Shown in pieces: positions 2,749 through 50,080 of a stretch of DNA of 64,000 bases. Position numbers and translations under genes: made by a program. This DNA is from Rhizaria sp. SCN 62-66 (Eukaryota), in assembly GCA_001724265.1 (NCBI GenBank), contig MEDY01000013.1:62001-126000 (forward strand). Reading direction: 5' to 3'. The notes beneath the pieces are model-generated. The model was not told the DNA's origin. It made no database searches and saw only the letters and a list, made by a program, of their open reading frames with translations. The number at the start of each line of letters is the position of its first letter. The first letter of the stretch is position 1.

Positions 2749-3250
2749 GTCGGAATCGGCGAAAGCGCACTTGAAGGATTGAAGGGAGGGGGGAGAGTTT
2801 TGTTTGAAATCAAGACTTGATGAGATAGATGGTGGGTGGTTGGAGAAATAATTGGATTTTTTGAAATCTAAAGATTTTATATGCTTAAATATATGTTTAC
2901 ATTTGTAAAATACAATCGTATGACATTGCTTACTCTTTTCCTGTTTTTGTGTTTGAGTGTGCCTTTTATGGAACGCCAGATTTTCGATCACGTTGAGAAA
3001 TGCAAAAGCCTTTCAGAGTGAAGAAATATAGAAAAGTACTGTAATCATTAAAGAAATGCACCCTTATTGTTTAATAAAGAATTTGCTGTGTATTACAGCC
3101 ACTTATGTGACGTAAATTATACAAGAAACTAGAGTAAGCGAAAGTTAAGAGTTGAACACACAGTGAGCTAAGAAAGCAACACTCGTATCATAAGATTTAA
3201 AATTGAGTTAAAATTACGTAAAATAATTTGTTAATGACAATACTTTGCTT

Positions 3251-3881
3251 TTAGATCGCAAGCCTGCCATACGCGCCCGCATACACCCCCCTCGTCTGCT
3301 GCTGCTGCAGCTGTTGTTGCTGCTGGTGTTGATAAAGCGGCGGTTGCTGTGTGAGCCCGGAACCTGGCATCACCACCCCCCCGCCGCCCAGGTAACCGTG
3401 GGCCGCTCCGGCGCTGCTGCTCGCGCCCGCGGCGGTGGTGTGTGACGCGATCAGTCCGGGGCCTGCGGCGACGTAGGCTTGTCCCGCCGCGGCCACGACA
3501 CGGGAGTTAGGGTTATTATACCCGCCGCCGCCGCCGCCGATCGTAGGGACACCGGCTGCTGACGCTGATGACGATGAATACGGCCTGTTTGCTTTGTATC
3601 CAACCCCGTTAGCCGCACCAGAGCCGGCTAGGCCACTGCCGGGCATTGACACGCCACCTGCGACAGAGCCCACCCCCGCCCCGCTACTATGGACCGCGTG
3701 GCCAGTATGGGGAGCGGCGACGATGGAGCCGGGCAGCAGAAGACCGGGGCCGGCGACCGTGGGCAGCAGCGGCGCGGCGGCAGTCAGCGCATCAATGGCG
3801 TCGCCGCCGCGGTACAAGTGACCGTGAGCAGCCGCGGAGTGACCGTGGGCAGCGGAGGGGTAACCCGACTGGTAGCCAGAG

Positions 3882-3913
<32 letters not shown>

Positions 3914-6900: not shown

Positions 6901-7148
6901 CCGGTGTAGAAGACGGCGTTGCGGGCCTGGTACTCGCGGATCTCGCGCTGCTCCCACGGGGTCAGGTTAGACGCCGCGCCGGAGCCGGACGCGCTAGAGC
7001 TGGAGCTAGCGATGGCACCGCCGCCTGAGGAGGGAGAGAAAGAGACGCCTGCGCTGCCCTTGCGGGACATACCACTGCCGGGAACGCTCACGCCGGAGCC
7101 CTGCGCGGGGCGCATGGGCACTGGGAGAGGTTGCTTCAGGGACAGCAT
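3251..7148 (-). CDS. DYRK: Class 2 DYRK-family kinase with long Q/N/H/A-rich C-terminal tail; exons 7148-6252, 6089-5780, 5558-5422, 5185-3251
   Basis: NAPA-like LTPWEQREIREY, DH box YDDADGHY..DHLAYRYQI, GKGSFGKV, VAVK, HCDVKPEN, VDFG, YIQSRFYRAPE, DLFSLGCI, and RRLTAAEALAHPWL. Three GT-AG introns join in frame. Stop TAA. Confidence 0.92.
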
Positions 7149-22700: not shown

Positions 22701-23751
22701 CCGACTGGCCGTGAGCGCCATGAGTGCCCGAGGGCGCTGTGACCGTGGGCAGCAGAAGGTAAGCCGCGTCCGCATCGCCGTTGATCACACACTCTACAGA
22801 GTCGCTCTCGAACAAGGCACGCAGACTGGCTAAGCCACGGCAAGCTTTACCGTCAGCGATCGCACTATCCGTGTTCATTACTGTGCTCGCGATGTTGTCG
22901 TCGTCGTGGTGGTCGCCCCACAAGTCCCACTCGCCGCTGTCCCAGCCGTCGTCCTCGTCAAGCTGTGCCTGATCGCTCGCATTCGCAGCATAGACGGCGC
23001 TGGCTGCTGACTCAGCAACTTCGCTGCCAGCAGCGCTCAGCAGCAGCCTCGGTGTCGCAACTCCGCCCGCTGCATGCGCGGCAGGAGCTGCAGCAGCGCT
23101 CTGCAGCGGCGTCGGCGCCGGTGTCACAGCCGCCGACGGGGGCGCAGTCCCGGCAGCCACCGCGGAGTTAAACCCGGCGAAACCGCTGCTGTTTGTGACC
23201 GCGCTGACAGGAACAAGACGGAACTTCTCAGCGCGCAACACAGCGAACGCAGCGGCCCAGAGGGGTTCATTAGCGGGGCTAGCGGCTGAGGCCCAGGCGC
23301 GGCAGACACGAGGCACACTGCGTAGCAGGTCTTCCGGCCTGAGGAAAGACAAAACGCACTGTAGCACGGGGGAATCTGGGTCCATAAGCGCACTCGGCGG
23401 CTGGGGCTCAGTGATCGCGGGCGCGCTTTTGTTGGCGTTGTTTTTGTGTTTGATGAGGTTGTTGTTCGAGAGGGATTGTGAGTTCAGAAGTGCGCGTGCA
23501 CAGGCCAATGCAGTCACTGCTGCTGCTGACGGTGCCGCCAGAGTGACTGCGACCGTGGGCATTGACAGCGCAGTGACTGTGAGCGCAGTACTCGTGCCCG
23601 CGGGCCCAGTACTCGCGGGCACTTGTTCTGCCGCAGTGACCGTGAACTGGCGCTTGGGAAGACCGAGCACGACGGACAACGCAGCGACTGCCGCCGATGC
23701 ATCAGAAACCGCAGTCCCCGTCCACGGGGTTGTCGCTGCTGTTGCCGTTGT

Positions 23752-23784
<33 letters not shown>

Positions 23785-24684
23785 GCGCGAGTGCCGCACA
23801 AGAGCCCTGAGTTCAGCTGATAACTGTCCCGTCGCTGCGGCAGCAACCCAGTCAACTTGCACCGGAGAACTGACGCTCGCACTGTGAGGCTGCTGCTGCT
23901 GGTGCTTGGTGTGCTGGCTGTGGCCCACGCGGCCGTGGGTCGTCGAGGCGCGCACAGCCCTATACACGCCATCAGCGCCTGCTGTCGCGTCATGGCCAGC
24001 ATCCTCGTCGGAGTCGCCGCCGTCGTTGTCGTCGCCGTCGTGGGCATCACTGCGAGCTCCAGCGGCGACGTCAGCGTCGGCGTCAAAGTCGCCGTCCGCG
24101 GATATGTGCGACTGCGACTGTGAGAACGCGTGGCCGTGGGTACTGGGGAACGCAGGCGGCAACGGGCCGATCATCAGGCCGCCACTGTGCCCGTGCAAGT
24201 TACCGTGAGCACTGTGAGCAGAGTGACTGTGAGTCGACGAGACTAACTGGTTGCGCTTACTCTGAGCAGCAACAGCAGCAGCAGCTAAATGGCCGTGCAC
24301 AGCAAAGTGACGAGCGAAACCACTCGGACTCAGCGCAACAGGAGCAGACGCAGAGGCAGGAAAAACTTCAATACCACAACCACCAGCAGCAGCAGTCGCA
24401 TTCAGCTCAGCGCCAGGCTTCACGCTAGTTACTACCGTTGACGTTGATACCTATGGAGGCGGTGAGAAACGGCTTGCTTTGCCTTCCTCATGCTCTTCAT
24501 CATCGTCGTCGTCGTCAGCCTTTGCGTCCGCATACTTCACATCCGACTCCGTGTCACCACCAGTAGTGCGCTCACGCTTCCGGTTAGCGCTCTCGCGTTC
24601 ACCACGCGCGCGCCCGCGGCGATACTTCGCACCCATCCCCGCAGCGCCAGCAGCTGCATGGCCACCACCACCACCACCACCACT

Positions 24685-24727
<43 letters not shown>

Positions 24728-25158
24728 GCAGCAGCAGCGGCAGCGCTAGCAGCAAGAGTAGCAGCAGCAGAAGCAGAGGTGGTGGCGCGCATAGCAGAGC
24801 CAGCACGCGCCGCCACAACGTCGCTGCTGTCGGTGGCGCTACTGTTGGCGGCGCTGACGTTTCCTTCCTACGGCGGGGGCACGAGAGCAGAGTCTGGAAC
24901 GCGCCCCTCCGCAGTTGTCGCCTCAGACCGTGCAAGCGCCTGCGCTGCGACCATGGTCTCCGAGACAAGGGCGAGAAACGCGGTGTAATCGCTCGCGCCA
25001 GCGGCTTGCGCGGAGAGGGATGCAAGCAGGTGCGCATAGGGGGACTACGAGGCCGCGATGGCGTCGGCAGCAGCACTTGCATCGTCGTGTATGGTTGATG
25101 CTGTTGGTGTTGGCGTTGCGCGCGACCCACGCCGGGAGCGCGGGGCGGCAGGGTCCAT
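7765..25158 (-). CDS. Giant intronless F-box + WD40 protein (~5,797 aa if three in-frame TAGs are read as sense; otherwise the 5,552-codon ORF 7765-24423)
   Basis: F-box-like VLQCVLSFLRPEDLLRSVPRVCRAW (~23290-23375). Seven GH...W[DRSN] WD40 repeats at ~10070-11030 and ~7885-8360. The same frame continues from 24423 to ATG 25158 with only TAG interruptions (24451-53, 24868-70, 25045-47). Stop TAA. Confidence 0.8.
23748..23783. repeat. Imperfect (TTG)n trinucleotide tract encoding poly-Thr on the minus strand
   Basis: Directly visible ttgttgttg run inside the F-box/WD40 ORF. Confidence 0.85.
24660..24745. repeat. (CCA)n/(GCA)n trinucleotide tracts encoding poly-Gly and poly-Ala on the minus strand
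   Basis: Directly visible. It lies in the TAG-containing N-terminal extension of the F-box/WD40 gene. Confidence 0.85.
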
Positions 25159-25924
25159 TGCGCACAAAAGGAAGGCTAATGCGTGCGTGGATGGTGGATG
25201 GATGAAGTGTGTTCAGCGTGTGCTGAGGGAATGCGCAAGGGAAGGCAACGAGATGAAGAGAGGAGAGTCGATGGCGTGAGAAGAGGCACGATTATAAAGG
25301 GTTTGGCAGAAGGGTTAACGGGAAATATGTGGTTAGCACGGGACATAAAAATAAGCCACTTGTAGGCGAATCAAAACAGAGTTTGTTTGTGTTGGGGCTG
25401 TAGCTACGGCGGTGGATGGCCGCATTGATGGGCTTGACCCTTCCCTGTGAAGCGGTCACAGAGCGAGTGATATTACCTAGGTTGATCCGCAGAATCCGTC
25501 ATTGACAAAATACTCAGCGCGGCACGTTTCCCCTGTGCGGATTCGATATAATCCATTTGTAAAATTGCATAAAAACAGAGTATAGCGCGGTATTCGAGTC
25601 TTTTCGATCGATTTGTTGTCCGCTTCGATTGGTTGGTCACGAAGAATCTGCCTCGGTTCGCAAAAATTCGCCCTTGCAGTATTTTGGTTGAGGTAGTCGA
25701 CGTCGCTCGAGGTTTCTTTGCTCGACATCACATCATCCGCCAAATGGTGATTTAACTCGTGCCCCACTTAATATGACTTGGAAATACTCTATTTCTAATT
25801 TGGCCGGTAGCGTTGGTGCTGCTATGCCTTTATACATCCCATCTTGAAACCCCAGAGCACGTGATGGCCACTCAAAACGCTTCCCCCTTCTTGTCTCCCG
25901 CTTTGCGCACCCCTCCTTCTGCAG

Positions 25925-28563
25925 ATGCGCATTCGCACGGCCCTCGCGTGTTTGTCGCTGCTTGTCGCAGTTGCGCACGCCGCACCTACGCTGCAGTATG
26001 ACGCCAACGTCCGCCAGGTCTCGTTCCTGCTGCCCGTGACTCCTTCCCGTGCCGTCACTTTCACGCCTGAGATGACGCTCGCCGAGGTCCAGGCCGGCCT
26101 CCGCCTGCTCGGCGCCTGCGAGTTCGTCGACGCCGCGTCGAACACGCCCTCCAAGCTCTCTGTTGCCACCGAGACTGCGACCATCTACGACGTTCTCGCC
26201 GCGCACCGCACCGAGGAGCTCTCCCTCGCTGTTCGCTGCACTGGCGCCGCTGCCGACGGCTTCCGCCGCCTCACGGGCGCCGCCGTCTCCACCACCGCGG
26301 CGGGCGCGCCCGCCGTGACGTATCCCGTCACCCGCGGCAACACTGACTGGCGCGATGCGCTGAGTAAGGAGCAGGTTGACTCTGTGCAGCCGCTGATCGC
26401 GCGTTTCTACGAGTACGTGCGCGGCGCTCTCCCCGAAGGCAGCATTCCTGCCCGTGAGTACCCGTTCGACCTGATCGACTACCTCCACAACACGCTCGAC
26501 GCGTCGTGGAACTGGCTCATCACGTTTCTCGTCTCTCACTGGGGGGACCTGCACCCTTTCAACACGTACACTGGCAAGGATGCGGACACGGGCCTGTGGG
26601 ACCTCACCACTGGCACCCAGATGACCCAGGTATGTTCCCTGCCATATTTCACGTATCAGAACAAAGATGACATATCATAAGCTTATTTTTGTATGTAACA
26701 ATTCATACTCAAATTTTACTATCTAACGCTATCAATTGTCGAACTTCCTTTATCTTATACCTTCTCTGTCATTTATGCTATTTTGCGATCCAATAACAGG
26801 AGGCCTCTGCGAACCTCGCTGCCGCTGGCGCCGAGTGCTGGCAGCGCCACTCCGCCAACGGCGCCACACCCTCCCCGCGCGCCCTCGCCCAGTGCGGTGC
26901 TCAGCTCACCGGCGTCGCCGAGTCCAACGCCGCTGTCCGCCTTGCGCTCACCGCTGACTGGGGTTCCGGCACTGATGAGGCGCAACTCGTCAGCAATATG
27001 ATGATTAATGCGACCAAGCCGCACTATACGGTGCATATCGGCGACATTTACTACGTCGGCGAGGTTAAGGAGGTCCGCAGCAACGTGCTTGGCGAGGTTC
27101 CGTCCAAGAATGTGCGCAACGGCGTGAATTTCCACGCCGGCTCCCGCGGCATGTTCGCCTTCCAGGTCCGTTAAAAACTGAAAACAACGCTTAAAAGAAC
27201 AAATCCGCTGAATCGATTCATGATATGTAACTGTTTTCATCTTTTTATCTGGTATTTTATGTCTCTAATTCACTTCAAATTATCATCAAGATCCCTCAAC
27301 TGCTCTTGATAGCTCATCGTCATTTTGCTTTCATGTCGACGTATGTTTTTTTAGGGCAACCACGAGATGTACTCGCGCGGTTTCGGCTACTACGACCACC
27401 AGCTGCCCCGCTGCGGCGTCAAGGACCCCGCCTCTGGCAAGGCCCTCGGTCAGAAGGGCAGTTACGGCTCTCTCGACACGCCGTTTTGGCGCATTATCGG
27501 TCTCGACACTGGTTACAACACGTACAACCCCAAGGGCGTCCACTCGCCGGATAACAAGCAGCCCGAGGCCGTTGTCGCTTGGCTCAAGGACATCGTCCGT
27601 CTGACTGATCCCGCCGACCGCCGTGGTATCATCATCCTCACGCACCACCAGTACCGGTCCGCGTTCGAGGCCCAGTACCTCAGCACGCCCAAGCAGCTTG
27701 CGCAGCTTCTCGGTGGTCGTACCGTCATCTGGCTCTGGGGCCACGAGCATCACCTTGCGTGGTACGATCTCGGTAACTCGGGTGGCGTTGATGTGACGTG
27801 CTATGGCCGCTGCATCGGTGTCGGCGGCTTCCCCATTGATATCGTCAAGCTTCCCAAGGACGCGCGCGCTGGTGGCATCATTGCGCAGGTACGGCATCAT
27901 ATCTAGCGCTACAACAATATGAACCAGTTGCCTTTTGAAATTGTATATGATTCATCCTAGGCTTATTTTATGCTTATCTTTCTTTGTTTAAACTTGTTGT
28001 TTTTTGTTTTCTGCTCCACGCAGGACACTCGTGAGTACGAGGTTCTTGCTGGCTCCCTTGGCACTGTGCCGATTGGCTTTAACGGCTGGAACACCATCGA
28101 GCTCGTCGGCAACAGCGCCCGCGTCGATTACTACACCCTCGCAACCAACGGCGACTACCTCAGCCGCACTAACTTTACCAAGGTCGTCACGGAGAACTTC
28201 ATTGTCAACAAGGAGGGCTCCGTCGAGCTGACTGAGTTCACCGTGCTTGACAAGGGCATCACGGTCTACGATCATGTGGAGCGCCCCCAGCAGCAGCTGC
28301 GCACTCGCATGGCCACCAAGGCCCACGGCCACACGCTGCCACAGACGCTCGCCGCGCGCACCGCCGCTGGGATTGAGACAGACGTCGGTAACGGCTTCCA
28401 GAGCGAGGACCTGCGTGCTGCTGGGGTCCAGGACGTCTTCGCAGCTGATGATTCGACGCATTCGACGAAGAAGATGAAGACGCAGCAGGATGTGATTGAC
28501 AAGGCGTACGCCGAGTACAAGCGTCTCCACCCGGAGTATGTTGAGCCTCAACTCCCCATCTAA
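25925..28563 (+). CDS. Secreted calcineurin-like metallophosphoesterase; exons 25925-26629, 26800-27165, 27355-27888, 28024-28563
   Basis: Signal peptide MRIRTALACLSLLVAVAHA. The spliced product has all five metal-binding motifs: ALTADWGSG, HIGDIYYVG, FQ|GNHEMY, ILTHHQY and WLWGHEH. Three phase-0 GT-AG introns. Exon 2 is not shown in the correct frame in the ORF track. Stop TAA. Confidence 0.88.
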
Positions 28564-30898
28564 GGACCTCGTGGTCTCAGTCCCCGCCGAGCTGAATTGC
28601 GTTTCAACTCGGTACATGTATCTAAATATCCCGAGCGACCTCCACTTGCACTTAAACACGTACTGTACATAATCACGTGTAAGTGTACGCCGCGCGCGTT
28701 TATGGTACTTTGCTGTCAAGCTATTGCTAGCTACTCACCGGTAAGCCTTAAACTCTTCAAGTTTAGAGTGTGCAGTACAATATGCGTGTTGCTGTGCTTT
28801 GCGTCTCCTTTCATGTTTCTATTCTGTTCCGCCCCTTCCACCCTGTTTGTTCAATCATTTCCTCTTTCTTTATTATCATTTGACCACAAGAGTCTCTCCA
28901 TGTTCCAACGACGCGTCTATGTCCACAATCGCCCCCATCATCGTAATTCAGCAATAATAGTCGTAGTCACGATTAGTACGCCCGCTATGCAACAGCTGTC
29001 GATTCAATTACCATATTATGATAAACTTGTCGTCCCCGGCCTCATTGCACTTAAAAAACAACTAGCCAACTGTGGCATCGCTGCTATGCACAATTCCAAT
29101 ACACTTTTACTTTTCGACACATCCTTCTCCCAAACACTCCACTCGATTACATTCGAAGACTCGTCTGTCCGCGCCCGTGTCTTAAACGACATTCACCACG
29201 AGAGCATCTCCTCGCACATCTGTGGCTATGCAGTTCCGAGGCTAAACGACGATTATTGGTTTATCATGAATAAAACAGTGATCAAGTGTATTATTACTTG
29301 TTAGATATCGCATACATATGTATGTTATAGTCGTGGTAATAACTATTGGTTTAAGTTTTCTTCGTTTGTGGTTGCTCTTAGCGTGATGGGATGTTGCTGC
29401 TTCTGATCTCCTGTTGCGTTTCATGACATGCAACGCAAATAAAACAGAAGTGAGCCAGCAGTTAAAGGGGAACGACAAGGAAAACATGAGCGACATTTGA
29501 TTGCAGTGCGGCTGCAACACACAAAATAACACAACGCCAAAAACCCTATCAGTGCCTGGAACGTGGGTTTGCGCTGATTGGATGTTGGACTCGTAGAATC
29601 ACGTGTAGGACGTGTCGTTTCACTGCGAATAAAGGGCCAAGTGTCGGTCGTGCTTCGGACGTATGTGTCAAGACTAGAATCAGTTCGTTCGTTGTGGGGA
29701 AGTGTGGCTAGACACAGTTTAAACGTGTTGATGTGATTGCCAGAATCTTAAAAATAACATACAGAAGCACGGTGACTATTCGGCATATAAACAAAAACTA
29801 AACAAAACGGGACAGATAAGAAAGGCTTGCAGAATAACCGATAAACAAAAATGGCACGATGTGTAAACCTTGCTAACACTGATTTACGTAAGCGAGCCGG
29901 CGACAAGCGGGCGCAGCCAAAACGTTCGCAATGTTGACTAAGACATCATGATGAGTGTTATGTACCATGTACAAACTGCTGCGCAGTAGAGCTGCCAGTG
30001 TGCCAATAAGGCCAAATAGCTGACATAAGGTTCCGTGTACGCGTTATGTTGTAAAGTTTTGTCGTTATGCGTGAAACGAAGAAAACAAATGAAGGTGATC
30101 TTGTTGGCGTGGGGTAGGATGCAAGAACTTATAGCGTGTTGTTACAAAGGAAATAAATGAACTCTACGCGGCGCGTCTCCAAACGCAAGAGACACAGTCA
30201 GTGTGCATTTGCAACTGGGTGATACCGTGTAAAAGCAATGCCGACAAAGTTGGTAGGCGGTCAGGATAAAAAAAGATATGGCGGCCAAAAAGTGTCGCCA
30301 CAGACTGTCAAAACAAACTAAAAAAAATATACATGTACTCGGGGAAAACGTATAAAAAACAAAGCGATTGAGGAAGGGAGAGGGATGCCATTGGAAGTCG
30401 GAGGCTGAGATGATGTCACTTGTTTTAACGAGACCGAACATAGAAGAACGTAATCTAAGGTGCGCGAACAAACAAACGAAAACAAAAACAAACAAGAACA
30501 AAAAACAACAACATGCACTGGGGTTGCAATTTCCACACCAGGAGCACATAAACTACGCAAAATACAGAGCACAACAAACTGCTAGGACTGTGCACGGGGA
30601 GCATAAACTGAGAATACGAACTAATGTTACGAAAATAGACTGAGTGGAGGTGTCTGCGAAAAGAGACAGCGTCTCCACGAGCCACGCAGTTCAGAGATAA
30701 AAGCACAGAAATAAACACAATTTAAAAAAATGGAGCTAGAATAATGACTTGCTGTACAAAAGAAGAAAATGGACATAGAATATGTAAAACGAGAATCGAG
30801 AGGATCGAATTAATACGGGGGAGCCTAACGTAGAGCGAGCATGTGTTCACGAGCACAAACAAGTTTTACAACAGACTTGTCACGTCAGCTTCGTTGGT

Positions 30899-33800
30899 TT
30901 AGTCGGCGAGATCAGAGTGGTTAAGACTGAGCTCGGCGTTATTGTTACTACTGGGCATGATCTGAATCTGCAGCGGCAACGGTAACGGCAACGGCAATGG
31001 CATAATCTCCGGCGATAAAAGCTCCGGTTGCGTCAACACGCTACCGCCGTTAAGGCCGTGTCCATGCACTTGACTGTGCACTTGACCGTGACCGTGACCG
31101 TGACCGTGGCCGTGACCGGGATGGTGAACGGGAACAAGAACGAGTCCATGCGCAAGCGGCGTCCGGGAACGCCCGTGTGTGCGCGTGTGACCGTGCGCAG
31201 CAGCGGCGGCGTCATCGCTAAACAACAGTGCACCCGTATTGGCGCGTGTGGCCGTGTACAGCGACGGATATTGACTGTGAACGTGGCCGTGACCGTGGGC
31301 AGCCGAGTGACCGTGCGCAGCCGAGTGACCGTGAGCAGCCGAGTGACCGTGAGCAGCCGAGTGACCGTGAGCAGCCGAGTGACCGTGAGCAGCTGCCTGG
31401 AGACCGTGGGCTGCCGCAGGTGCAGAGAACATATACCCCATGCCCGGGCTCACAGTCGTGGCCACAGTGGCCGCCGCAAGCACATCCGCGGCCGCCAGAG
31501 CGCCGGCCGAAGCGGGGGCGTCTGAGGACGCGACGACGAACGAACTCGTTGACACAGCAGAACGGCTATCGGCAACGGGTGAGACAATCGTCGCCGCCGT
31601 GGGGGCATTGTTCAGACTGTACGCGACGACGGCCGCACCGTTGCTGGCCGCGATATCTGCGGTAGCTACATTCGCAGTCGCGGGAGCGATTACCGCGTGA
31701 GCATGGGAGGTCGCATCGACGCTACAGCCAGCGTGGCCAGACATCGCCGACATTGGCTGCTGCGACTGTGGCGACGCCTGTCTAGTGACAAGACCACTCG
31801 ACGTTGCGCTCATCACTTGGTGCACTACGCGGCCCATCGCCATGCCCCCGGGACTCAGCACTGCGGCGCGGTGGCCGTGCGCAGAGTGACCGTGAACAGT
31901 GACGGAGTGTCCGAACTTGTTCAAACCGAGACCTGACCCGCCAGCGGGGTTCAACGTAGTGGCTTCAGTGTAATGCGCCTGCGCTGACGTCGCCGTAACG
32001 CTCGAAGTTGACTTGGCGCTTGACCGGGAGACTGAGCTCGAGCTCGCCACAAACAGTGAGTCTGAGATATGCCCAGGCCCCACAGTCTCGGCCGCGGAGA
32101 GCAAGGGCTCGTCGGTGGCCGGCGCATTCGCAGCCAACATCTTACTGCTGACGACAACAGCAGCGGAGCCACCGCTGCTGCCGCTAAAGCTACTCCGGCC
32201 ACTACTGCTGCTACTACCGCTATTGTTACTGCTGCTGTTGCTGCTACTGCTGCTCCGACTGTGATCGTTGATACTCGCGGTGCTTGCCGTGAGCGCTGCA
32301 GAGCCCAGCGTGCGCTTGCAGGGTGCGAATGTCTTATAATACCCCACGACTGTCACGGCGACAGCGACGGCAAAGACGCAGACAGCGGCGAGAACGTAAT
32401 GCGAAAACATCCACGGCAGCCCGCCGCCGCCGCCGCCGCCGTCGCCGCCGCCACTGCAGGTGCGCGCGTACACACCGGACGCGCACCGCTGGAACACCAC
32501 GGGTGGGATCTCGATCGGGTTGATCGTGGGGAAGCGGCGTCGAAGCACCGACGACGGGTCCTTGACGTGGTCCGCGAGGAGCTTTGACAGAACCATGGGT
32601 GTGGGACGCGCGTTGTGGTGCAGCGGCCGAACGACAAGCGTGACGATAAACGCGTCTGGTGCGATCGCGATCGAGTCGAAGCGTGACAGAGCAATCCCCG
32701 TGCTTGCGACGACCGCGGTGACGAACGACGTGGCAAACGCGCGGAGAGCGGGCTCCCCGACAGGCCGGTTGCCGGTCATGGCGACGCTGAGCATCAGACC
32801 CGCGGCGGGATTCATCTGCAGCACGACATGCAGACCGTAGCCAACCGCCACAGAGACGTTACTACCGTCCGCGTTCGCCGCACCCGTCAGCTCAATCGCA
32901 CTACCGCCACCACAGTTCGCGGAGCGTGTCCCGTCGCCGGTGCGGTAACCGCTGATGTTGTTGCTGCTGTCATACACAATGGCCCCGTGGACGTCCTTAA
33001 GCCGCACTGGGTACTTCCCCGGCGCGCAAGTAGGCACACGCCGCGGTGTGATGCCCATTCCCACGTCGTACAGCGAGTCCGGCGTCACGAGTTCTTCGCT
33101 GGCGGCGTCAGTTTCACGGCACGCGCGCAGACGCACGCGAATCATGCTGCTTTCGGGGGCGCCGACGAGCTCTAAAGGGGCATCAAACGCAGTCGCGTTG
33201 CCGCTGTCCTGGCTGTGGTGGAGAGAAGCAGTCGAGGAAGCGTCGGTAGTCTCGCTGTAGTTCATTCCCGCCCCAAGAAGTTCCGCGGAAGCGACGACGG
33301 AGAGGTTGCCAGTGGCCCAGAGCGTATATACATCGCTGCTGCCAATCTCGACGACGTCGGGTGTAATGGTAGAGACGAAAATGGACGCCGGCGTGAGCGG
33401 AGTCGGTGTGATGTACCGTGTAATGGCGTCAAAACGTGCGAAACTGAGCGGGGCTTTGGCGTGCCCGAGGATCTGCACCCGTCCTGAGATGGCGCTACAC
33501 AGTGGCACACTTTCGTCAACCTCGAGACACACGCTGCCGCTGTCGATATTCGAGGGAGTGGGCGGGAAACGGCACCGGGGAAGGTCAAACTCGACACCCA
33601 TGCCGGTGCGGCGCGCTTCAGGCGCCATCCACGTGCCGACCTGGACTGCAACGGGCAGTGTAATGGGGAGATCGATGCCGAGCGTGACTGTGAAGTCTTT
33701 TTCGCACGGCAATAAGGGCGCGGGGTACAGCCTTCCGGGGGTGATAGGCTCGACGACCTCGATCTCACCGACAGCGACAATACCACCGTTGTTGTCGTTG

Positions 33801-35356
33801 CTGCTGCAATCGCCACTAAAGTCGTCATTCTCGCATGCAAGTGTGCGGTCGTTGCGGACGATGACTTCTTTGAATCCGGTGCACGATGAGCCCGCAGTGA
33901 GGCACGGCGGTAGACGACAAGTGATCGCAGAGCCATACATTGAGATAATGTGACACGTGCGGCCACCGATGAGCACGCGTACTCCGGCGACTGCAAGATT
34001 TTCACCGCGAATGGTGATGGTCATGTCGGTGTCATCGCCACCGGTCGAGTTTATGATGGAAATATGGTTTGTGCCGTTGCTGTTGCTGATGTCAAGCTCA
34101 GAGCTGTCATCGTCGCTGTTGGTGTGATTGCTGTCGGAGTTCTTTCTGTTATCGGGCGTATAGTGGAACTTGCGCGGGATCCAATTGGGCACAACCTCAC
34201 GCACAAACGCGCCCAGTGCCGCGTCAACAGGCTTCGTGTAGTTGAACACGAACAGACGCTGGTCTAAAAACACAACCAGCTCTTCGTCATCGTCATCGTC
34301 AGTGACATCACTATTGCCATGGCTGTTGCGCTGACTGCGGCGCGGAATGAGTTGGAGACCGCGCCGCTCGGACACGCGCGCGCGCCGCACGATATCACCA
34401 GGCCGCAGCGCGGAGACACCGTGCGCTGCGTACCGCGCCGCTGTGTCATCCGCGCGGTCGTTCAGACGGCGGATCTGGTGTTGTTCTTCCTTCGGTTTAA
34501 CAGTGATGATCAGGAACACTGCGATGTGGCAGACAGCGGCGTTTTCCACTTGCCCGGCATCGAACACTAAGTAGCCCGAGCTAGTGGAAACGACAGTGGG
34601 ATCCATCGGCAAGTCATCGTCGTCCGCGCCGACAAACGCGTTGTAGTGGCTGGTGTCGTTGGAGGACGAAAAAGTGGGGGCAGGTCCGTCAAAGAGGCAG
34701 GTAAAGACGCGGAACCGTTCGCGGATCTTGAGCCGCGTCATTGTGACGTGAACCACAGCGTTTGCATTCTGGACGACCACTAAAGGCGAAATGGTCATGA
34801 TACGTGGGGAGAAAAACGACACCATACGCGGGAGATCGGTAGTAAAAGGGGTCGCCTCGGATTCGGAGTTGAGAATGCCTCTAAGGATCAGGTCACCGTC
34901 TGCGAAATGGGCGTGGTTCCCAGTCACGGTGCAGATAAGCTGATTCGGCGTGATCGCGTCAAGCACAGGACACGCCATCACGCCCACGCTGGCGGAGACA
35001 ACCAGTGCGTCGACGAGCGAGTAGAGATCAAACCCGCAGCCAGTGATGGTGAGAGCGACATCTCCGTGCGACCACGACTCGCGCGGATAGACAGAGTGCA
35101 AGATAGGCTTTGTCACCACATCGGGACACACGGGGGTCGTGAAGTTGCGCAGGGGCTCCTGCGCGGGCGGCAAGGAGGTGTCGCGCGCGGCGAGGGCGGA
35201 CTGGTGGAGCGCGGGGAGCGCGGTGATGAGAGGAGGTTTGTTGAGAGCGGGGATAGGGGCGGCGGAGGCAGTGCAGATGGCGAGCAATAGTAACGCTATC
35301 ACAGCGCAGCTGCACCACCTCATGAGACGAAAGCGAACGCTTTGCGTCGACCGCAT
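30899..35356 (-). CDS. Type I membrane protein with IPT/TIG-like extracellular domains and a Ser/Ala/His-rich cytoplasmic tail
   Basis: Signal-like AVIALLLLAICTASA after ATG 35356 (ORF open to ATG 35557). IPT-like segments LHSVYP...LTITGCGF...LICTV and ITIRGENL...VLIGGRTC...ITCRLP. TM helix YVLAAVCVFAVAVAVTVVGYY. Intronless, stop TAA. Confidence 0.72.
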   Translation of the reverse strand: MRSTQSVRFRLMRWCSCAVIALLLLAICTASAAPIPALNKPPLITALPALHQSALAARDTSLPPAQEPLRNFTTPVCPDVVTKPILHSVYPRESWSHGDVALTITGCGFDLYSLVDALVVSASVGVMACPVLDAITPNQLICTVTGNHAHFADGDLILRGILNSESEATPFTTDLPRMVSFFSPRIMTISPLVVVQNANAVVHVTMTRLKIRERFRVFTCLFDGPAPTFSSSNDTSHYNAFVGADDDDLPMDPTVVSTSSGYLVFDAGQVENAAVCHIAVFLIITVKPKEEQHQIRRLNDRADDTAARYAAHGVSALRPGDIVRRARVSERRGLQLIPRRSQRNSHGNSDVTDDDDDEELVVFLDQRLFVFNYTKPVDAALGAFVREVVPNWIPRKFHYTPDNRKNSDSNHTNSDDDSSELDISNSNGTNHISIINSTGGDDTDMTITIRGENLAVAGVRVLIGGRTCHIISMYGSAITCRLPPCLTAGSSCTGFKEVIVRNDRTLACENDDFSGDCSSNDNNGGIVAVGEIEVVEPITPGRLYPAPLLPCEKDFTVTLGIDLPITLPVAVQVGTWMAPEARRTGMGVEFDLPRCRFPPTPSNIDSGSVCLEVDESVPLCSAISGRVQILGHAKAPLSFARFDAITRYITPTPLTPASIFVSTITPDVVEIGSSDVYTLWATGNLSVVASAELLGAGMNYSETTDASSTASLHHSQDSGNATAFDAPLELVGAPESSMIRVRLRACRETDAASEELVTPDSLYDVGMGITPRRVPTCAPGKYPVRLKDVHGAIVYDSSNNISGYRTGDGTRSANCGGGSAIELTGAANADGSNVSVAVGYGLHVVLQMNPAAGLMLSVAMTGNRPVGEPALRAFATSFVTAVVASTGIALSRFDSIAIAPDAFIVTLVVRPLHHNARPTPMVLSKLLADHVKDPSSVLRRRFPTINPIEIPPVVFQRCASGVYARTCSGGGDGGGGGGGLPWMFSHYVLAAVCVFAVAVAVTVVGYYKTFAPCKRTLGSAALTASTASINDHSRSSSSSNSSSNNSGSSSSSGRSSFSGSSGGSAAVVVSSKMLAANAPATDEPLLSAAETVGPGHISDSLFVASSSSVSRSSAKSTSSVTATSAQAHYTEATTLNPAGGSGLGLNKFGHSVTVHGHSAHGHRAAVLSPGGMAMGRVVHQVMSATSSGLVTRQASPQSQQPMSAMSGHAGCSVDATSHAHAVIAPATANVATADIAASNGAAVVAYSLNNAPTAATIVSPVADSRSAVSTSSFVVASSDAPASAGALAAADVLAAATVATTVSPGMGYMFSAPAAAHGLQAAAHGHSAAHGHSAAHGHSAAHGHSAAHGHSAAHGHGHVHSQYPSLYTATRANTGALLFSDDAAAAAHGHTRTHGRSRTPLAHGLVLVPVHHPGHGHGHGHGHGQVHSQVHGHGLNGGSVLTQPELLSPEIMPLPLPLPLPLQIQIMPSSNNNAELSLNHSDLAD
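31299..31388. repeat. 18-bp coding minisatellite x5 (GCAGCCGAGTGACCGTG[A/C]) encoding HGHSAA on the minus strand
   Basis: Five near-identical tandem units read directly from the sequence. Confidence 0.92.
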
Positions 35357-36432
35357 AACCGGGGGATGCCGAAAACTACAAACGCTGCTCGCGCCAGCGA
35401 GACTGCACGGGAGAAATGGGGAAGCAAGGACACAGAAAGGAATCATAAAAAGAGGTTCTGCGACGCACTCAAAGGGGATATACATGCTTCCTGCAATCGG
35501 CACCATAAAAAAATATGAAACAAAACCCACTCTTACACCACTTAAAGAAGATAACATTCAATCATATCGACGGAAAGACCACCAAATATTGACGTTTAGT
35601 TGGCTGACATTCCCCTTCAGGGCTGCAATGACAATTTAGAGTTGCTGTCAGGCGCAGATTGACCGATGCCAGTGATGCTCCCGCATCACAGCTACATCCC
35701 CGAAAGTGTCGCTCAACTGAGCATAATTTAATGATGTTGTGAATCTTAGCCTAGAGTTCGTAGTTTAAAATGGGACACTTTTGGAAATTTTGCGGAGAGG
35801 TATTTGAACTCAATTATGTTGATCTTATTTTATAAACCTTGAATTTAGACAATGTTTATTTGCATTTAAGTTTTCGTCTCTGTCAATAGCCATGCTATGT
35901 AAACCGAGTCGATCTCGAAGATAAAGTCGCAGGTTCATTCATAGAATAGAACAGTAACACCGCGCATCCCTGTCATCTAACAGAAAACGAAGTTTTAACA
36001 AGGATAGCGCCACATATCAATGTAGGCGACCGTGAGGAAAACAACGTTGATATACTCATGTATCCCGCATGTCATCAGGGATATCACACAGTATAAACCC
36101 ATCTTGCGAGCTCAATGCGTATTCAACCAAACCAATTGGTGATTTCGAGCAATTGAACCTTCTGTAATAAATTACGCTAGCCATATATACGAAGTAAACA
36201 CAGTTTGAGAATCGCGGCAGACTGTTCAAACCAACATTCGGGACCATTCCTGAGCGCTCCGCGGATTTTCCGCCGACACAAAAGCGAATATTAAAACAAT
36301 TACATGAAATGGTATATCTGACCATCTGATTCGATAATCCGAAGGCGAAAACAAAGCGATATCATGTGAAAAACGCACTTTGTTCACAGCTAGCAGACGT
36401 GGACACGCACGCGCTGAATCATTGCGTTCAGC

Positions 36433-36708
36433 TCATGCGTCATCGTCATTACCGCCGGCAAGAGAAGCCAGGTACGCCTCGCGCCTAGCACGCCACCGCT
36501 CCAGGTTCTAATCGTAGACATCGAGCACGCAGCGCGCGCATCCCTCACCGCAGCAATCGCCGTCTTCTGGAGCTGAGGGGCGGCTGCCAACGGCTGAGCG
36601 CAGGGCGACGGGGTCGACGCCCAGAGAAGCCAGACGCGTACGGTCGGCGGACTCGTTAGCAGGGTCAAGTAGAGATGATGCATATATATCTTCGTCGATG
36701 ATAGACAT
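36433..36708 (-). CDS. Small Oxidoreductase-like N-terminal domain (OXLD1-type, CCxxGCxxC) protein, 91 aa with one in-frame TAG at 36508-36510
   Basis: PSAPEDGDCCGEGCARCVLDVYD-[TAG]-NLERWRARREAY matches the family pattern PxxP...CCxxGCxxCVxDxYxxxLxxW. The next stop is TGA at 36433-36435. Confidence 0.78.
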
Positions 36709-36924
36709 CTGATGTAGTAATATTTGTCGCGAGTGAGGCTCGTTAGTAAGAGACGGGTTAATGAGACGAAACAGCTGCAGGATTGTGGAGTTTCAGGACA
36801 ATACATAGTAGCTCAACGAGTACTTCAGACTGTATAAATAGGAAATAGTCTATATATTAAGCTTAAATATCACATGCCAAATTTTCACGCAATTTGACGA
36901 TCAATTCACCGAGATAACCAACAT

Positions 36925-39870
36925 TCACTTCTTCCCCCCCGAACCGGTCGTCTTCTTAGTGTCATCATTGGACTTGGCAGCAGCACTCGCACTGGTACCA
37001 GTCTTTTTACTCTTTACAGTAACGCTATCTGACGAGGCCGATGTCTCAGCAACCTTCTTCTTCTGCTCGCGCTTATGCAGAAACAGCGCATCCGTGGTCT
37101 CCACCCGCACCGGGCTCCGCACGGTCACTTCAACCCCACCCACACACAGAGCCAGAGAGAGATGTTCAGGAGCAGTCTTCACACCGCTCTCCCCAGTCTC
37201 CGCACCCGCCGTTACAACCGCTAAACTACTGGTGCATTGCGCAACGCGGCTCACGGTCACGGCACCCGCCACCGCGTCCACCGCCGTCCCCGCCATCCCG
37301 CCCACTCGCCCAGCGGCCGCGACCGCAGCCAACGCCGCCTTCTCCGCCGCTACCGCTAAACGCCCCACAACACCTGTAACGCCACCGGTGCGACCAGTGC
37401 TGGCGTCGGCTGTGACGGCTGAGAGAGCAGGACTCGCGCGCGCAAGGAGACGCTGACGCACCGTCTCGGCGACAAGAGAAGCTTCGGCGGCCCATTTGGC
37501 GGCACGAGGACCGCGCAACGGTGAAATGCGACTGAAAATACCAGTGGGACGGGAAACGCCAGTGTTACTGCCCTTGCTACCGCTCTCATCACCGGCAGTG
37601 AAGCCGGGGATCACGGACCAGGAAAACTCGGAAATAAGCCACTGGAGAGAACCGTTCTCTGCAGTTGCCATATCAGTCACCGCGAAGCCCTCTGTCTTCA
37701 AATAACGGACTGAAAACTTGTGAATGTTGTTATCTTCACCGGAGCGAGGCGAAGTGAGCTGACCAAAACGCGACGCGCCAGTAGTGCACGCCAAGTTGTC
37801 CAAGTGCGTGATTACAGTCGCCGCCTCCTCACTCTGCCCCTGACTCTGGCGTTGACTGTCATGCGCGTTTTCGATCGCGTTGTTGAGTGCGACCAAAGCG
37901 TGTCCACCCGGATAGTTGCGCACAGACGCCATCCACGTCGCCCCCGTGACCGCAACGCATGCGCTGAGGGCCAGCGCAGCGACCGACAGGCCCACAGTCG
38001 CCATGAGCGCTCGGCGGCAACGAGAGACTGTCCGGCGCACACATCCAACCGACGCGCCCACGGTCGCACTGCTGCTCACACTCGCCCTGCTGCTCACGGT
38101 CGCATTCTTCACGGTCGCGCTGACGGTTGAGTGCATTGGTGACGCTGCGAGCGCAGCAGCGGCAACTGTGGCGGCACCGAGGGCAGCGAGAGTGTAGAGC
38201 AATGGCACGGCAGGAAACAGAAAGCGCAGCTCCTTATGTGGCAAGAATGAAAACAGCGCAATAAAAGCAACAATCGGAGCTAAAAGTGTGCGCGCATCAG
38301 CAGCAGCTGAGCGCTGCATCGCTTCCTCATCTTCTTCAGGAATAGCTTCACTTACATGTGTGTAAGTACCCCTTACACCCTTGCGCGCGCACAGAGGAAT
38401 GCGGAAGAGAGCAGCGATCGTCGGCACAGGGATGACAGAAAGCACTACCGCGGGGGCCCACGCGAGCAGAAGACGTGGCAGCGCTGAAGTGCCGTACCAG
38501 TGCCAAGGTGAAGTGCCCCAGAGGTGAGACTTGTTGTCGACGGTGTTATAAAGCAGAACTCGGAGTTCTGGCCACATTAGCGGTTCACGCCACAGAGCGG
38601 AGTCAATTGCGAGTGTGGCCGAAATGCACACGACGCTTGATACAATACCACCACGCAAGACAGAGAGTACAGGCAGAGACAGTGAGCCCCCATGAGAAGC
38701 GTTTGATTTGTTATCGCGTGATTTGTCGGATTTGTCGGCTTTGTTGTTGCCATTCTCGCGATTGAGGAGACTGCGCGCAAACCCGATCAGAATCCACGGC
38801 CCTGCGAGGATGATAACATCACAGCGGAATATAATAACAGCGGCCGCTAGCGCAGCAACGCAGAATGCAGGTTTTGAGCTAAGCCACGCTGCGAGCGCGA
38901 GCGTCGTTAGCTGCAGTGCAAAGATGTTCGCTAAGGGGCGCGACGCGTAATAAGCGAAGTGGAACAAAGTCAACGGCACAAGCGCAAGCAAGCTCGACGG
39001 CCGCAGTAGCGCGGGAAGCGCGGGGAACGCCGTGTCAAAACGTTGGCGAACAGCGCGGCGCAAGAACGCCCAGCAAGTGACCGTGATCGCGGCGAGGACG
39101 AGACGCGCGCATAGCAGTAACCATAGTGAGTCACCGCGAACTGCGGGTAACACCAAACCCGCGGTCACGGAGACGCTGGGAAGGGATGCAAGTGAGGCGG
39201 CAGCGGCGGCTGGGTTCGGGGAGGAGAGGACGGATGAGAGCATGGTGGAGAACGAAGGGGGCAGAAAGGTTGCTGAGTTAACCACAGCCGATACCTTAGC
39301 CGTCCAGGCGGGAAAAAGCGCGACCAGAGGCGCAGGGGTAGGTGGAAGAGAGAAAAATAGCACGCGTGCGCCGAGAAATGGCTCGGAGTCCCAGACAGCA
39401 GCAAGTGCAGATGCAAGAGTAGGTGCCAGAGCAGGAGCGAAAGCGTTGATCGTCGATGTACAAGCAATCAACGCGGGGATCAGCAAGGGCATCACAAAGA
39501 CCCAGAACGCCCATGCAAGGCGGTGCAGCACAAATGTTGGCACAGCGAGCATCAGCGGTCCGATGAAAGAGCGCGGGACAACACCGGGGAATTCGTGGTG
39601 GTCGTAATGAGACAGGTCAGCCCCATGGACGAGCAAGTCGTGTGTGGCCTGGACCTGGAAACTCTCTTCAACTTTCGTAAACGGGCATGTGAGCATGTAC
39701 AAGCCTGCCAGGATAAAGAAAATGACGTCAGGCAAGCCCCAGAGACAAACACGAGAGAAACAAGAACGAGAACGGGGGCCGGGACCGTGGGCGCTGGATG
39801 CTGACGCACCAGCAACAACAGGCTTGGCCATACCGATTCTAAACGCGCGCGAAGCAAGTGAAATACGCAT
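36925..39870 (-). CDS. ALG12: Dol-P-Man:Man7GlcNAc2-PP-Dol alpha-1,6-mannosyltransferase (GT22)
   Basis: CPFTKVEESF..QATHD, YDHHEFPGVVPRSFIGP, YYASRPLANIFAL, IFRCD, WGTSPWHWY, LPHKELRF, NYPGGHAL and TGASRFGQ, with many TM segments. Intronless, stop TGA. Confidence 0.93.
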   Translation of the reverse strand: MRISLASRAFRIGMAKPVVAGASASSAHGPGPRSRSCFSRVCLWGLPDVIFFILAGLYMLTCPFTKVEESFQVQATHDLLVHGADLSHYDHHEFPGVVPRSFIGPLMLAVPTFVLHRLAWAFWVFVMPLLIPALIACTSTINAFAPALAPTLASALAAVWDSEPFLGARVLFFSLPPTPAPLVALFPAWTAKVSAVVNSATFLPPSFSTMLSSVLSSPNPAAAAASLASLPSVSVTAGLVLPAVRGDSLWLLLCARLVLAAITVTCWAFLRRAVRQRFDTAFPALPALLRPSSLLALVPLTLFHFAYYASRPLANIFALQLTTLALAAWLSSKPAFCVAALAAAVIIFRCDVIILAGPWILIGFARSLLNRENGNNKADKSDKSRDNKSNASHGGSLSLPVLSVLRGGIVSSVVCISATLAIDSALWREPLMWPELRVLLYNTVDNKSHLWGTSPWHWYGTSALPRLLLAWAPAVVLSVIPVPTIAALFRIPLCARKGVRGTYTHVSEAIPEEDEEAMQRSAAADARTLLAPIVAFIALFSFLPHKELRFLFPAVPLLYTLAALGAATVAAAALAASPMHSTVSATVKNATVSSRASVSSSATVGASVGCVRRTVSRCRRALMATVGLSVAALALSACVAVTGATWMASVRNYPGGHALVALNNAIENAHDSQRQSQGQSEEAATVITHLDNLACTTGASRFGQLTSPRSGEDNNIHKFSVRYLKTEGFAVTDMATAENGSLQWLISEFSWSVIPGFTAGDESGSKGSNTGVSRPTGIFSRISPLRGPRAAKWAAEASLVAETVRQRLLARASPALSAVTADASTGRTGGVTGVVGRLAVAAEKAALAAVAAAGRVGGMAGTAVDAVAGAVTVSRVAQCTSSLAVVTAGAETGESGVKTAPEHLSLALCVGGVEVTVRSPVRVETTDALFLHKREQKKKVAETSASSDSVTVKSKKTGTSASAAAKSNDDTKKTTGSGGKK

Positions 39871-40156: not shown

Positions 40157-43100
40157 TCACATTTCATCGGAGACGACGGCGATGGGCGAGTACCGCGCAT
40201 CCGAGCCCCACTTGAGCCCGACAATCACACCGGCACCAAACAGAATCAGTCCCATGCCCAAAAACAGCACAAAGAATCCACCGGGCGTGTTGTACCACGC
40301 CACGCCAGCGTCTGCGTTCACACCTTTCCCCTTGCTTTTATCCATAGCAGCAACATTGCCACCTCCACTAGTGTTCGAAGCATTAAGAGCATCAGACTCG
40401 GCAAAAACGCCTGGCGACTGCATCGCGGGCTCAGCCGGCCAGTCACACTGATCGCCAACGCCGTCCCAGTGCTCTCGGTCCCGGTCCACCGCGCTTGCAG
40501 CGTCACCGGGGTGTTGCCGCCACCACCGCACCGCTCGGAGCCACCATGACGGGTAAAAGAGCGCTGACGCGTCAAACTCCGGTCCTGCGGGCGTCTCAAG
40601 CCGATATCCGTCGTGGTACTTGGTGATAACGCGCCAAAACAGCGCCCAGTACGCCGCAAACGCGCGCTTGGCCGCCATCTCACTGTGCGCCTGCAGAATC
40701 ACACTGGCGAAGTGGGCCGCCTCGGTGCGAGATCGAGCACGGCGCACAGTCGCCAATGCTCGGCTCAACGCCGCAGCGCTGTGGGCTGTCGCAGAGGCCA
40801 CGCGATCGGGGTCGGCCTCGGCGGTGGTGACAAGAGCGGCGGCGGCGGCGGCGACAGCAGCCTTGACCTCATCGATGGTCTCCTTGTCGCCATCGCCGTT
40901 AACGTTTGCGTTGGTATTGGCGTTGGGGTTTGCTTGCCAGTTGCTAGGACCGTCCACTGGAGCAGCCGCGACCGCCGCATGCAACGCCGTGGCCACAGCC
41001 TCGACCTCCGCGTCCGCGGTTGCCTCAAGTTCCATGCGCGTGACATCAATCTCGCGAGTCACGTGCTTCCACGCGCGTTCTGCGTAGTTACCCACGGCAC
41101 AAGCGACCCACCACAGCGAAGACTGGTCGAACCGGAACAGCGAACCCGTGGTCAGCGGCGCCGGCACTGGCCCCGGCGCCGCGGGGTAGAGCGGGACGAA
41201 GACGGACGTGCGGGGCTGATGCGGGGCCACCCAAGTGCGGAACAGTGCGGGCGCGAGCGTACTACTGGCACTTGCACTGGCGCTGGCGCTGGCACTGGCG
41301 GCGCTGGCAAAGTGGCCCTGAATCGGCATCGAACGCATTTCAGAGATCACGGTGTACGCAGTGCGGAAAAGCGAGATCGTGCGCTCAAAGTGGCCCGTTG
41401 CAAGCTCTTCCTCAGTCAGAGGCTCACCGTCACTCCGGTCTAAGTTATCCACATCGCCCTCAGCAGCCTGCGTGGCCAATACAGCGCGGGTGAACGCGGT
41501 GTCGCTGGAAGTTAAGCCGGGGGCAATGGGCGCCTGCGTGGCGTCGCGAGGCGCGGTTTCAGTCCAGAAGAACTCGGTTGCGCTCGTCCGCAGTCCCGGG
41601 GTGTTGGCGGAAGTGTAAGCAGTTGAACCGGAAGCGTACACAGAAGCAGTGCTCAGGCTCGCTCCAGGAGGCGCATCGACCGCGTTTGCGCTCGAACCAA
41701 CAGCAGAACTCACAAGTGAGCTCAACGCAGAGCTGGAAGTGAAGCTCGTAGGGTTAACTGCGGGGGTACTCGTGCTAGAGCTCGTGCTAGTTGTCATGCG
41801 TTCGCGGTTGCGCCGGCGTTTGAGCTCAGCGGCAAGCGGTGTCGCACCATACGCATCATACCGGTTCGGGTTACCAAAGGGGCCGGCTGCAAGACCCGTT
41901 GTCGTGTCATAAGGAGTGCCTTCGAAGTGGTCACGGTGCACAGCGCGCAGATCAGCGACTGTGACCGGGCGGTCAGGCTTGACCGAGAAAGGCAGTTCCC
42001 AGGAGGACAGCGACGCTGAGAGGTTAAGCGAGGGCGCTAAGAGAGAGAAAACACGCCACGTGCGGCGCGACACGTAGGGCTCCTTGTAGATCGACTGTGG
42101 GTAGCCGTAATGTTTCTTCCAGTCTAAGGGGCCGTCTAAGGGTCCTTCGCCCGTGACATTACCCGACCACAGCCCGGCGCGCTTCGCCACCGTAAAGATG
42201 TTCTCACTGGCCATCCACCACTCACCGTCGCGCGTCTCGGGCGGCGGGACGCGGCGAATGCGGAACGTGTTCGTCAGCACAGTCACGTGGTCGTCTGGTA
42301 CGCGCTGTGCAGCCCAAACGGCGCTGGCGCCTGTGTCGTCAGGGCAGACGTGGAACACCCAGGCTTCCTTGTTATCAGTGATCGTAAACGCCTCGCCGCC
42401 CTCGACAAAATCATCCGGCCCCCATGCCGCGGAAAACATGCCATATCGCTCCGCGAGAGCTCCCAGATTGCGGACGGCTTCGCGGGCTGATCGACTGCGC
42501 TCCAGCGTGATGCGGGTGAGTTCACTGGCTTCGAGCAGGGCACGACCGCCGGCGTAGACGGGGGCGGCGACGAGACGGGCGCCGCAGGTGGACTCGCCGA
42601 TCGCGACGCCGTGCTCGTTGCTGATGCCGTAGGAACCGTCCAGGTAAGCGTACGTGTGCGGGACCTGTGGAAGAAACAACAAAAAGCAAGATTTCACAAC
42701 ATATGTGTTAGCTTGAAAGATTAAATCTCAGAAATGCATTATAAAATAATAAATTAAATAGAAATACACTTGTTTTGCTCGAATCAGAGTTAACATGTGT
42801 GAATGTGATTTGTTTCTCTGTTTTGTTGAGCAAAGTGAACGTGCCTGGGGGATGTGTCCGACGTGGTCGCTCTCAGTCCAAGGATAAATGGTACCGTCAA
42901 CCTTGGCGCGCGAAAACGCGGGTCCGCGGTCATTGCCCACGTAGCGCGGGTACGAGTATCGCATGGGCGGGATGGCGCGCGTCGCATTCGCTCCGTGTGT
43001 CGCTGCAGGAACGCGGAGGATGCGGAAGTCGCAGTCGTAGCAGTCGTCCGCGTGCGTGTTCAGAGTGCCGCCACGCAGTGTGGCGCGCGCGCCAACGGCG

Positions 43101-49693: not shown

Positions 49694-50080
49694 TTTGTAA
49701 AGATTAAGACTGTAATGTCTAGTTCTTCGCACTCAACTGATGACTTTGAGATCAGATCAAGGGCGCCCAGTCGGACTCCTCGGTCGGTCGGTCGATCGAC
49801 CGAACAATCCAACCACGACTTTTTTTCGACTACAACCTTCGAGTCGGTTCGTGAAAAAGCGGCTGGAAGACAAGTAACCACCGTACCCTCATATTATAAG
49901 CGTTCCTCTCACCAATCCAATTCTGTTTGAGTTATAATTACACGGACTAATGTAACATAATAGTACTTATAAAGAAATGCTATATCATATGTAATGACGG
50001 ATGTTTGACCTTGATTGCCGCTCATTTTCTGTCCGCCCAACGACTCTCACCCTCCTCTTGTTGCAGTGCAAACCACACAG

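Follow-up and report, generated by a model that had tools for sequence, protein, structure and literature searches.

In the window analysed here (the whole 64-kb stretch of DNA), TAG is the only stop codon found deep within coding sequence, and it never serves as a terminator. TAG is probably a sense codon in this organism, with TAA and TGA terminating translation. Of the five in-frame TAGs, the one at 36508–36510 (minus strand) lies in a small gene of the Oxidored-like family (PF09791), where its position can be compared with homologous proteins. An earlier note on this DNA had called it the best single test site for the code, a fair description since it is the sole one of the five in a Pfam-covered, alignable column. 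The premise of that note, a non-standard code, is further supported by the rest of the window, both by the interior stops and by the terminators.

An in-frame TAG within an Oxidored-like gene

Under the standard code, the Oxidored-like gene is a minus-strand ORF of 66 aa (36508–36708), running from the ATG at 36708–36706 to the TAG at 36510–36508 ('cta' on the plus strand). Its product carries the CCxxGCxxC half of the Oxidored-like domain and ends in ...CCGEGCARCVLDVYD (also given as ...DCCGEGCARCVLDVYD). The frame runs on past the TAG (codon 67) through an extension at 36433–36507, made up of 24 codons (NLERWRARREAYLASLAGGNDDDA) and a TGA terminator (36433–36435), as had been noted earlier; with the TAG included, it has 91 codons up to the TGA. 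The extension has a coding score of +8.6, and the GC content drops only 3′ of the TGA, not at the TAG. A run of 24 open codons has a probability of 0.61 by chance and is not significant alone, but the extension is regarded as real because homology continues through it.

The match of the 66-aa product to PF09791 scores 30.1 bits and covers positions 7–31 of the 46 in the profile. With the TAG entered as X, the score rises to 43.7 bits and the match covers positions 7–43; both forms exceed the Pfam gathering cut-off of 24 bits. When individual residues were placed at the TAG, the scores were E 46.7, D 46.6, Q 44.8, K 44.5, A 44.3, S 44.1, R 43.8, Y 42.7, L 42.4 and W 41.8 bits, and the gain from read-through is 13.6–16.6 bits. 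The helix that lies 3′ of the Cys motif (L-E-R-W/Y, profile positions 32–43) is present in the protein only if the TAG is read through. This agrees with the proposal in the earlier note that the TAG is inside the domain and that the codons after it encode the homologous helix; the outcome that would have counted against it, a match stopping at the TAG with no gain downstream, was not seen, as the end of the match moves from profile position 31 to 43.

When the read-through protein was compared by phmmer with a library of 1.84 billion representatives, 266 matches had E ≤ 1e-3. An alignment of 122 rows was built from these, consisting of 121 from the best 150 of the 266 matches plus P0002; the query's own 66-aa product and 28 rows of at least 130 aa were left out. 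The column at the TAG has no gaps and contains E (54), D (20), Q (18), A (9), R (8), L (4), K (3), T (3), M (2) and I (1), with no W, and every one of the 122 homologues has residues in 10 or more of the 15 columns beyond it. None of the 122 aligned rows ends at or near this column. The CCxxGCxxC motif keeps its four cysteines (C52, C53, C57 and C60) without exception in all 123 rows. Five of the excluded long rows, inspected by eye, have T (P0003) or D (P0004, P0007, P0011 and P0014) at the TAG column, and in the PDB chain 7zm7_o an E is aligned to the TAG, the alignment running through the site.

The column is therefore polar or acidic, as had been predicted, with E, D or Q in 92 of the 122 homologues. 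The further expectation, that Glu or Gln would be preferred over Leu or Trp, holds to a modest degree: in the profile scores the margin of E is 4.3 bits over L and 4.9 bits over W, that of Q over L is 2.4 bits, and L and W account for four and none of the 122 residues. The odds for Glu against Leu or Trp, as this single column gives them, are about 20–30 to 1 and do not amount to a determination. The site appears to favour Glu or Asp, then Gln, and one column does not settle the amino acid.

The likeness to other PF09791 proteins lies in the CCxxGCxxC motif with its four invariant cysteines, a conserved D and Y, and then the L-E-R-W/Y helix. Among the matches listed in the representative library, the closest relative is P0003, at 45% identity, and a word-index search for close orthologues returned, besides the product of the gene itself, a single relative of 52 aa. 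The nearest eukaryotic relatives (P0003, P0007, P0011 and P0014) are 263–423 aa long, with a long N-terminal hydrophobic and low-complexity region, whereas the present gene has about 90 residues. Only 216 AT-rich bases (36709–36924) separate the TGA of an ALG12-like gene from the ATG of the Oxidored-like gene, and as this is too small for the long N-terminal region of these relatives, the gene is a short stand-alone form. One member of the family has been solved, the Chaetomium 'Oxidoreductase-like domain-containing protein' (PDB 7zm7, 7zmb and 7zmg), and human OXLD1 is another PF09791 protein. With the TAG decoded, the product would be a protein of about 90 residues (36436–36708, minus strand) with a complete domain, rather than a 66-residue stump; the complete domain would comprise the four-Cys CCxxGCxxC knot and, after it, the L-E-R-W helix.

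The TAG is also found in independently assembled DNA. A JGI metagenome contig of 2,363 bases (L001) is 100% identical to positions 34888–37250 of the window, TAG included, and a metagenome scan for orthologues from sister species recovered one locus only, this same identical one. Sequence of the stretch occurs in runs of 10 studies, covering bioreactor, wastewater and fuel-cell metagenomes, and the runs listed for 36000–37000 include no RNA run. In one of these runs (X4), from an independent study of another year, a contig of 2,174 bases (35182–37354) carries six substitutions and one insertion, none of them at 36508–36510. Its sole difference inside the ORF is at 36628, the third base of Ala27, and is synonymous. 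The contigs listed for two other runs (X7 and X8) all lie outside 36508–36510. Because the L001 and X4 contigs both keep the TAG, a sequencing or assembly error at 36508 is excluded, and the TAG is common to at least two strains. Two further in-frame TAGs are likewise unchanged where contigs cover them, TAG 25045 in an X4 contig (24936–26177) and TAG 24451 in an X8 contig (24366–24653).

A poly-A RNA library (X16) has no contig on 36007–36673 and is neutral with regard to expression or editing. Elsewhere, an X16 contig at 42510–42908 is collinear with the genome through the intron of a C69 peptidase gene (about 42668–42841), and represents either unspliced RNA or carried-over DNA. At 30671–32004, 40676–41342 and 24001–24667 the contigs pile up to a very high depth (about 1,180 at most in X4), and loose ends and false joints are numerous. 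Contigs of other organisms are drawn to these spots by short, GC-rich repeats in coding sequence, an example being the His-Gly-His-Ser-Ala-Ala repeats of a TIG-domain protein.

In-frame stops and terminators across the window

The window belongs to a GC-rich, intron-bearing microbial eukaryote, uncultured and derived from bioreactor and wastewater metagenomes, and shows no prokaryotic features. Exons have a GC content of 55–80%, and introns and spacers 17–45%. Protein domains are split across frames by AT-rich GT-AG introns in the genes for sortilin, a DYRK-like kinase, the C69 peptidase and a metallophosphoesterase-like protein. The introns are 119 to about 240 bases long, with CAG/GTACG donors and a polypyrimidine tract followed by CAG or TAG acceptors. 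The minus-strand ORF at 3251–5281 is not a separate gene but the last exon of the DYRK-like kinase (3251–7148); it holds the C-terminal kinase motif ...DLIARLTAWDPARRLTAAEALAH, past an intron with a CAG/GTACGG donor near 5421. The M16 (insulinase-like) peptidase gene (plus strand, 1–2748) crosses an AT-rich intron at about 1585–1755 into the exon at 1756–2745. A four-exon gene at 25849–28563 (plus strand) encodes a metallophosphoesterase-like GHEHH motif, with no Pfam match at E ≤ 0.01, and ORFs of similar length are found on the opposite strand.

Coding segments were delimited with a seven-state Viterbi model (six coding frames and one noncoding state) in which TAA, TAG and TGA were given the same emission probability, and a stop was counted as interior if it lay at least 30 codons from either end of a coding segment. 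Over about 17,700–17,800 coding codons, this gave five interior TAGs (24451, 24868, 25045, 36508 and 51785), no TAA and no TGA. The training set had included a 403-aa ORF (1780–2991, minus strand) that was rejected as a gene, being antisense to an exon of the M16 peptidase and an artefact of GC-rich coding sequence; retraining without it led to the same result. The model was retrained without both this ORF and the sequence flanking the TAGs, and run at nine parameter settings. Exactly the five TAGs were recovered in three of the nine settings, the five plus extra stops in two, three or four of the five in another three, and two in the strictest. The extra stops (TAA 31051, TGA 55210, TGA 44109, TAG 12935 and two intronic TAGs) were added by the three laxest settings and are taken as artefacts of short segment switches. 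Interior TAA or TGA codons were absent in six of the nine settings, the default included, and numbered one or two in the three laxest.

Among out-of-frame stops in the long genes, TAG makes up 21% and TGA 60%. The probability that five interior stops are all TAG is 4e-4, or about 0.009 if three of them that occur in one giant gene are taken as a single locus. All five TAGs have GC-rich surroundings and an in-frame coding signal on either side. The 60 bases 3′ of each have a GC content of 0.52–0.93 (also given as 0.52–0.77), compared with 0.18–0.53 3′ of the 13 TAA and TGA ends and intron starts that were checked, of which 12 do not exceed 0.50. The codons following the TAGs are AAC, TCC, GTA, GAA and TCC, with no common motif. 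Homology supports TAG 36508 only; the other four are in low-complexity sequence without Pfam cover, and their basis is codon statistics, composition and open frames. Tiny introns at the five sites were considered and rejected, as the real introns are AT-rich and 119 to about 240 bases long, and the TAG sites are GC-rich. Five other in-frame TAGs (5371, 27904, 27958, 46313 and 52729) were rejected as sense codons, as all lie within AT-rich introns.

The TAG at 51785–51787 (plus strand) is codon 591 in a gene with some 3,707 codons, and lies in a low-complexity stretch without a homologue. The first exon of this gene (50015–52612, 866 codons) contains the TAG and is followed by a 119-base AT-rich intron (52613–52731; CAG/GTACGT...TATAG/G, phase 0) and a second exon of 2,841 codons (52732–61254) that ends in TGA. 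Since this canonical intron joins the two ORFs in phase, the TAG is deep inside the gene. The next 277 codons contain neither TAA nor TGA, for which P = 0.003 in a non-coding frame; the 278 codons after the TAG score as coding in this frame only (+76.8), and the GC content just 3′ of the TAG is 0.77–0.93. The gene as a whole (50015–61254) encodes mostly low-complexity protein, and neither ORF has a Pfam match.

Three in-frame TAGs (24451–24453, 24868–24870 and 25045–25047, minus strand) are in a giant F-box/WD40 gene that runs from ATG 25158 to TAA 7765 (7765–25158, 5,798 codons). They lie between this ATG and an F-box/WD40 ORF of 5,552 codons, all within the first 236 codons, and are recognised by coding statistics only. 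TAG 25045 is the weakest of the five and was kept in seven of the nine Viterbi settings. The segments between these TAGs have coding scores of +47.3 and +12.9, and the 92 codons from the last TAG to the next in-frame ATG score +40.1, so the coding signal precedes any standard-code start of the gene. If the giant gene starts instead at the ATG 93 codons past the last TAG, the three TAGs are not independent evidence. The remaining codons of the gene, about 5,560, include no TAG. A search for homologues of the N-terminus, in which 971 candidates of 3,188–10,145 aa were scored, had no match at E ≤ 1e-3. In the encoded protein, an F-box-like motif occurs around residue 600 and the last 1,400 residues contain WD40 propellers; elsewhere it is of low complexity and without a family match.

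Gene ends were placed in 12 cases by a domain reaching the end, a fall in GC content, or both. Seven are TAA: those of the M16 peptidase (2746), the kinase (3251), the giant F-box/WD40 gene (7765), the phosphoesterase-like gene (28561), the TIG-domain protein (30899), an E2 enzyme (48721) and the last gene in the window (61521). The other five are TGA, ending the Oxidored-like gene (36433), the ALG12-like gene (36925), the C69 peptidase (40157), sortilin (47945) and the 3,707-codon gene (61252). At a TAG share of 21%, the absence of TAG from 12 ends has a probability of about 0.06, the sample being small. A Fisher test gave 1.2e-4, computed on 13 ends, one of which was later re-read as intronic.

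Interpretation of the UAG codon

A conventional explanation of the Oxidored-like gene, under the standard code, would be a recent nonsense mutation (e.g., from GAG or CAG); the gene would then be a pseudogene of recent origin, or a truncated allele that has become fixed in the population. In its favour, the gene is a small one from a family whose function is not well known, a recent event would also leave the downstream sequence as well kept as it is, and in-frame TAGs are extremely rare, the five longest ORFs (approximately 11,800 codons) having none. Such a mutation would account for one TAG, but not for TAG 51785 or those of the giant gene. It does not explain why the interior stops are all TAG and none TGA, when TGA is 60% of the out-of-frame stops, or why none of the 12 terminators is TAG. 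The X4 strain retains the TAG with a single, synonymous change in the ORF, and the window has no intact paralogue of the gene. A nonsense mutation is judged quite improbable. More improbable still is that the TAG is a true terminator of a functional 66-residue protein lacking the C-terminal helix, with the downstream similarity a relic in the 3′ UTR. The short product does pass the Pfam gathering score and keeps the four invariant cysteines; on the other side stand the 122 aligned homologues, which all extend beyond the column, and the 24 downstream codons, with their positive coding score, their addition of 13.6 bits and their exon-like GC content up to the TGA.

UAG might also be formally a stop that is overcome after transcription, either by RNA editing (to CAG for Gln through a U-to-C change, or to UGG for Trp through A-to-I) or by leaky, site-specific readthrough with a near-cognate tRNA. 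Rare sites with intact homology downstream are what this would predict, and Gln is compatible with the column, being present in 18 of the 122 homologues. Trp, which A-to-I editing would produce, has the lowest score of the residues placed at the site and occurs in no aligned homologue. The contexts of the five TAGs share no motif, the AAC CTG that follows TAG 36508 is unlike commonly described readthrough contexts, and neither editing nor readthrough predicts terminators free of TAG. This explanation is judged unlikely.

Decoding of UAG as sense, the preferred reading, would require a tRNA with the anticodon CUA and/or a release factor (eRF1) that ignores UAG. The 64-kb window contains no tRNA gene or Rfam match and no eRF1 gene. 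The amino acid would most likely be Glu or Gln, and Asp fits the column equally well. UAG is not known to specify Asp in any code, and Glu is not known for UAG without a change of UAA. UAG occurs five times in about 17,700 codons (about 0.03%), and would represent about 1% of the Glu or Gln codons; such sparse use would fit a young or weakly used reassignment. A more specific form, in which UAG alone means Glu, UAA and UGA are kept as stops, and the change has only just begun, UAG being about 1% of the Glu codons, is a tentative possibility that we consider rather unlikely; it would offer a natural snapshot of the capture of a stop codon. If UAG does specify Glu and UAA is still a stop, it would be a new variant of the code.

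Changes in the nuclear code are rare and most have been found by chance. If the reassignment is true, an independent UAG-only lineage in an abundant, uncultured wastewater protist would be a data point on stop-codon capture, and the rarity of UAG would mark an early or weakly used reassignment. Gene calling under the standard code truncates or splits proteins here, and annotations of this lineage would need re-translation, since the public protein collection contains the 66-aa stump as an entry.

Affinity of the organism and comparison with known UAG codes

Among named sequences, those that match the sortilin exon best are rhizarian (Lapot gusevi 48%, Plasmodiophora 44% and Paulinella 41%), with a stramenopile at 41% and dinoflagellates at 38–39%. 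In a maximum-likelihood tree of sortilin, the window sequence groups only with metagenome proteins and is not placed in Rhizaria or any other major group, so that an affinity to Rhizaria may be taken as a lead only. The literature surveyed held no report of a wastewater protist of this kind or of a second cercozoan UAG code.

Reassignment of UAG only, with UAA and UGA kept as stops, is described for the sainouroid rhizarian exLh (UAG for Leu) and for Iotanema spirale (UAG for Gln) (Panek et al. 2017, PMC5304391). The features shared with the window are UAG in frame but never as a terminator, UAA and UGA as stops, and an origin in (meta)sequence data of uncultured protists; the rhizarian matches of the window's sortilin are a further likeness. 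The usage documented there (384 UAGs in 71 genes; and 204 in 126 genes, about 8% of the Gln codons) is far heavier, that of the window being one to two orders of magnitude lower (PMC5304391). The informative site of the window also differs from the exLh code as given there, favouring Glu, Asp or Gln and disfavouring Leu by about 4 bits. The reading of the window, unlike those of exLh and Iotanema, is drawn from DNA sequence alone.

Phyllopharyngean ciliates use UAG for Leu or Gln, with UAA as the preferred stop (McGowan et al. 2024, PMC11687900). They share with the window a reassignment of UAG alone, probable in the latter, and were likewise found by mining metagenome-derived eukaryotic assemblies. 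In these ciliates the use of UAG is widespread and suppressor tRNAs have been identified. The window differs from them in being GC-rich, in its AT-rich spliceosomal introns, and in showing no alveolate affinity (38–39%, against 44–48% to rhizarians). It is probable that the organism represents a further lineage of the already documented UAG-only reassignment.
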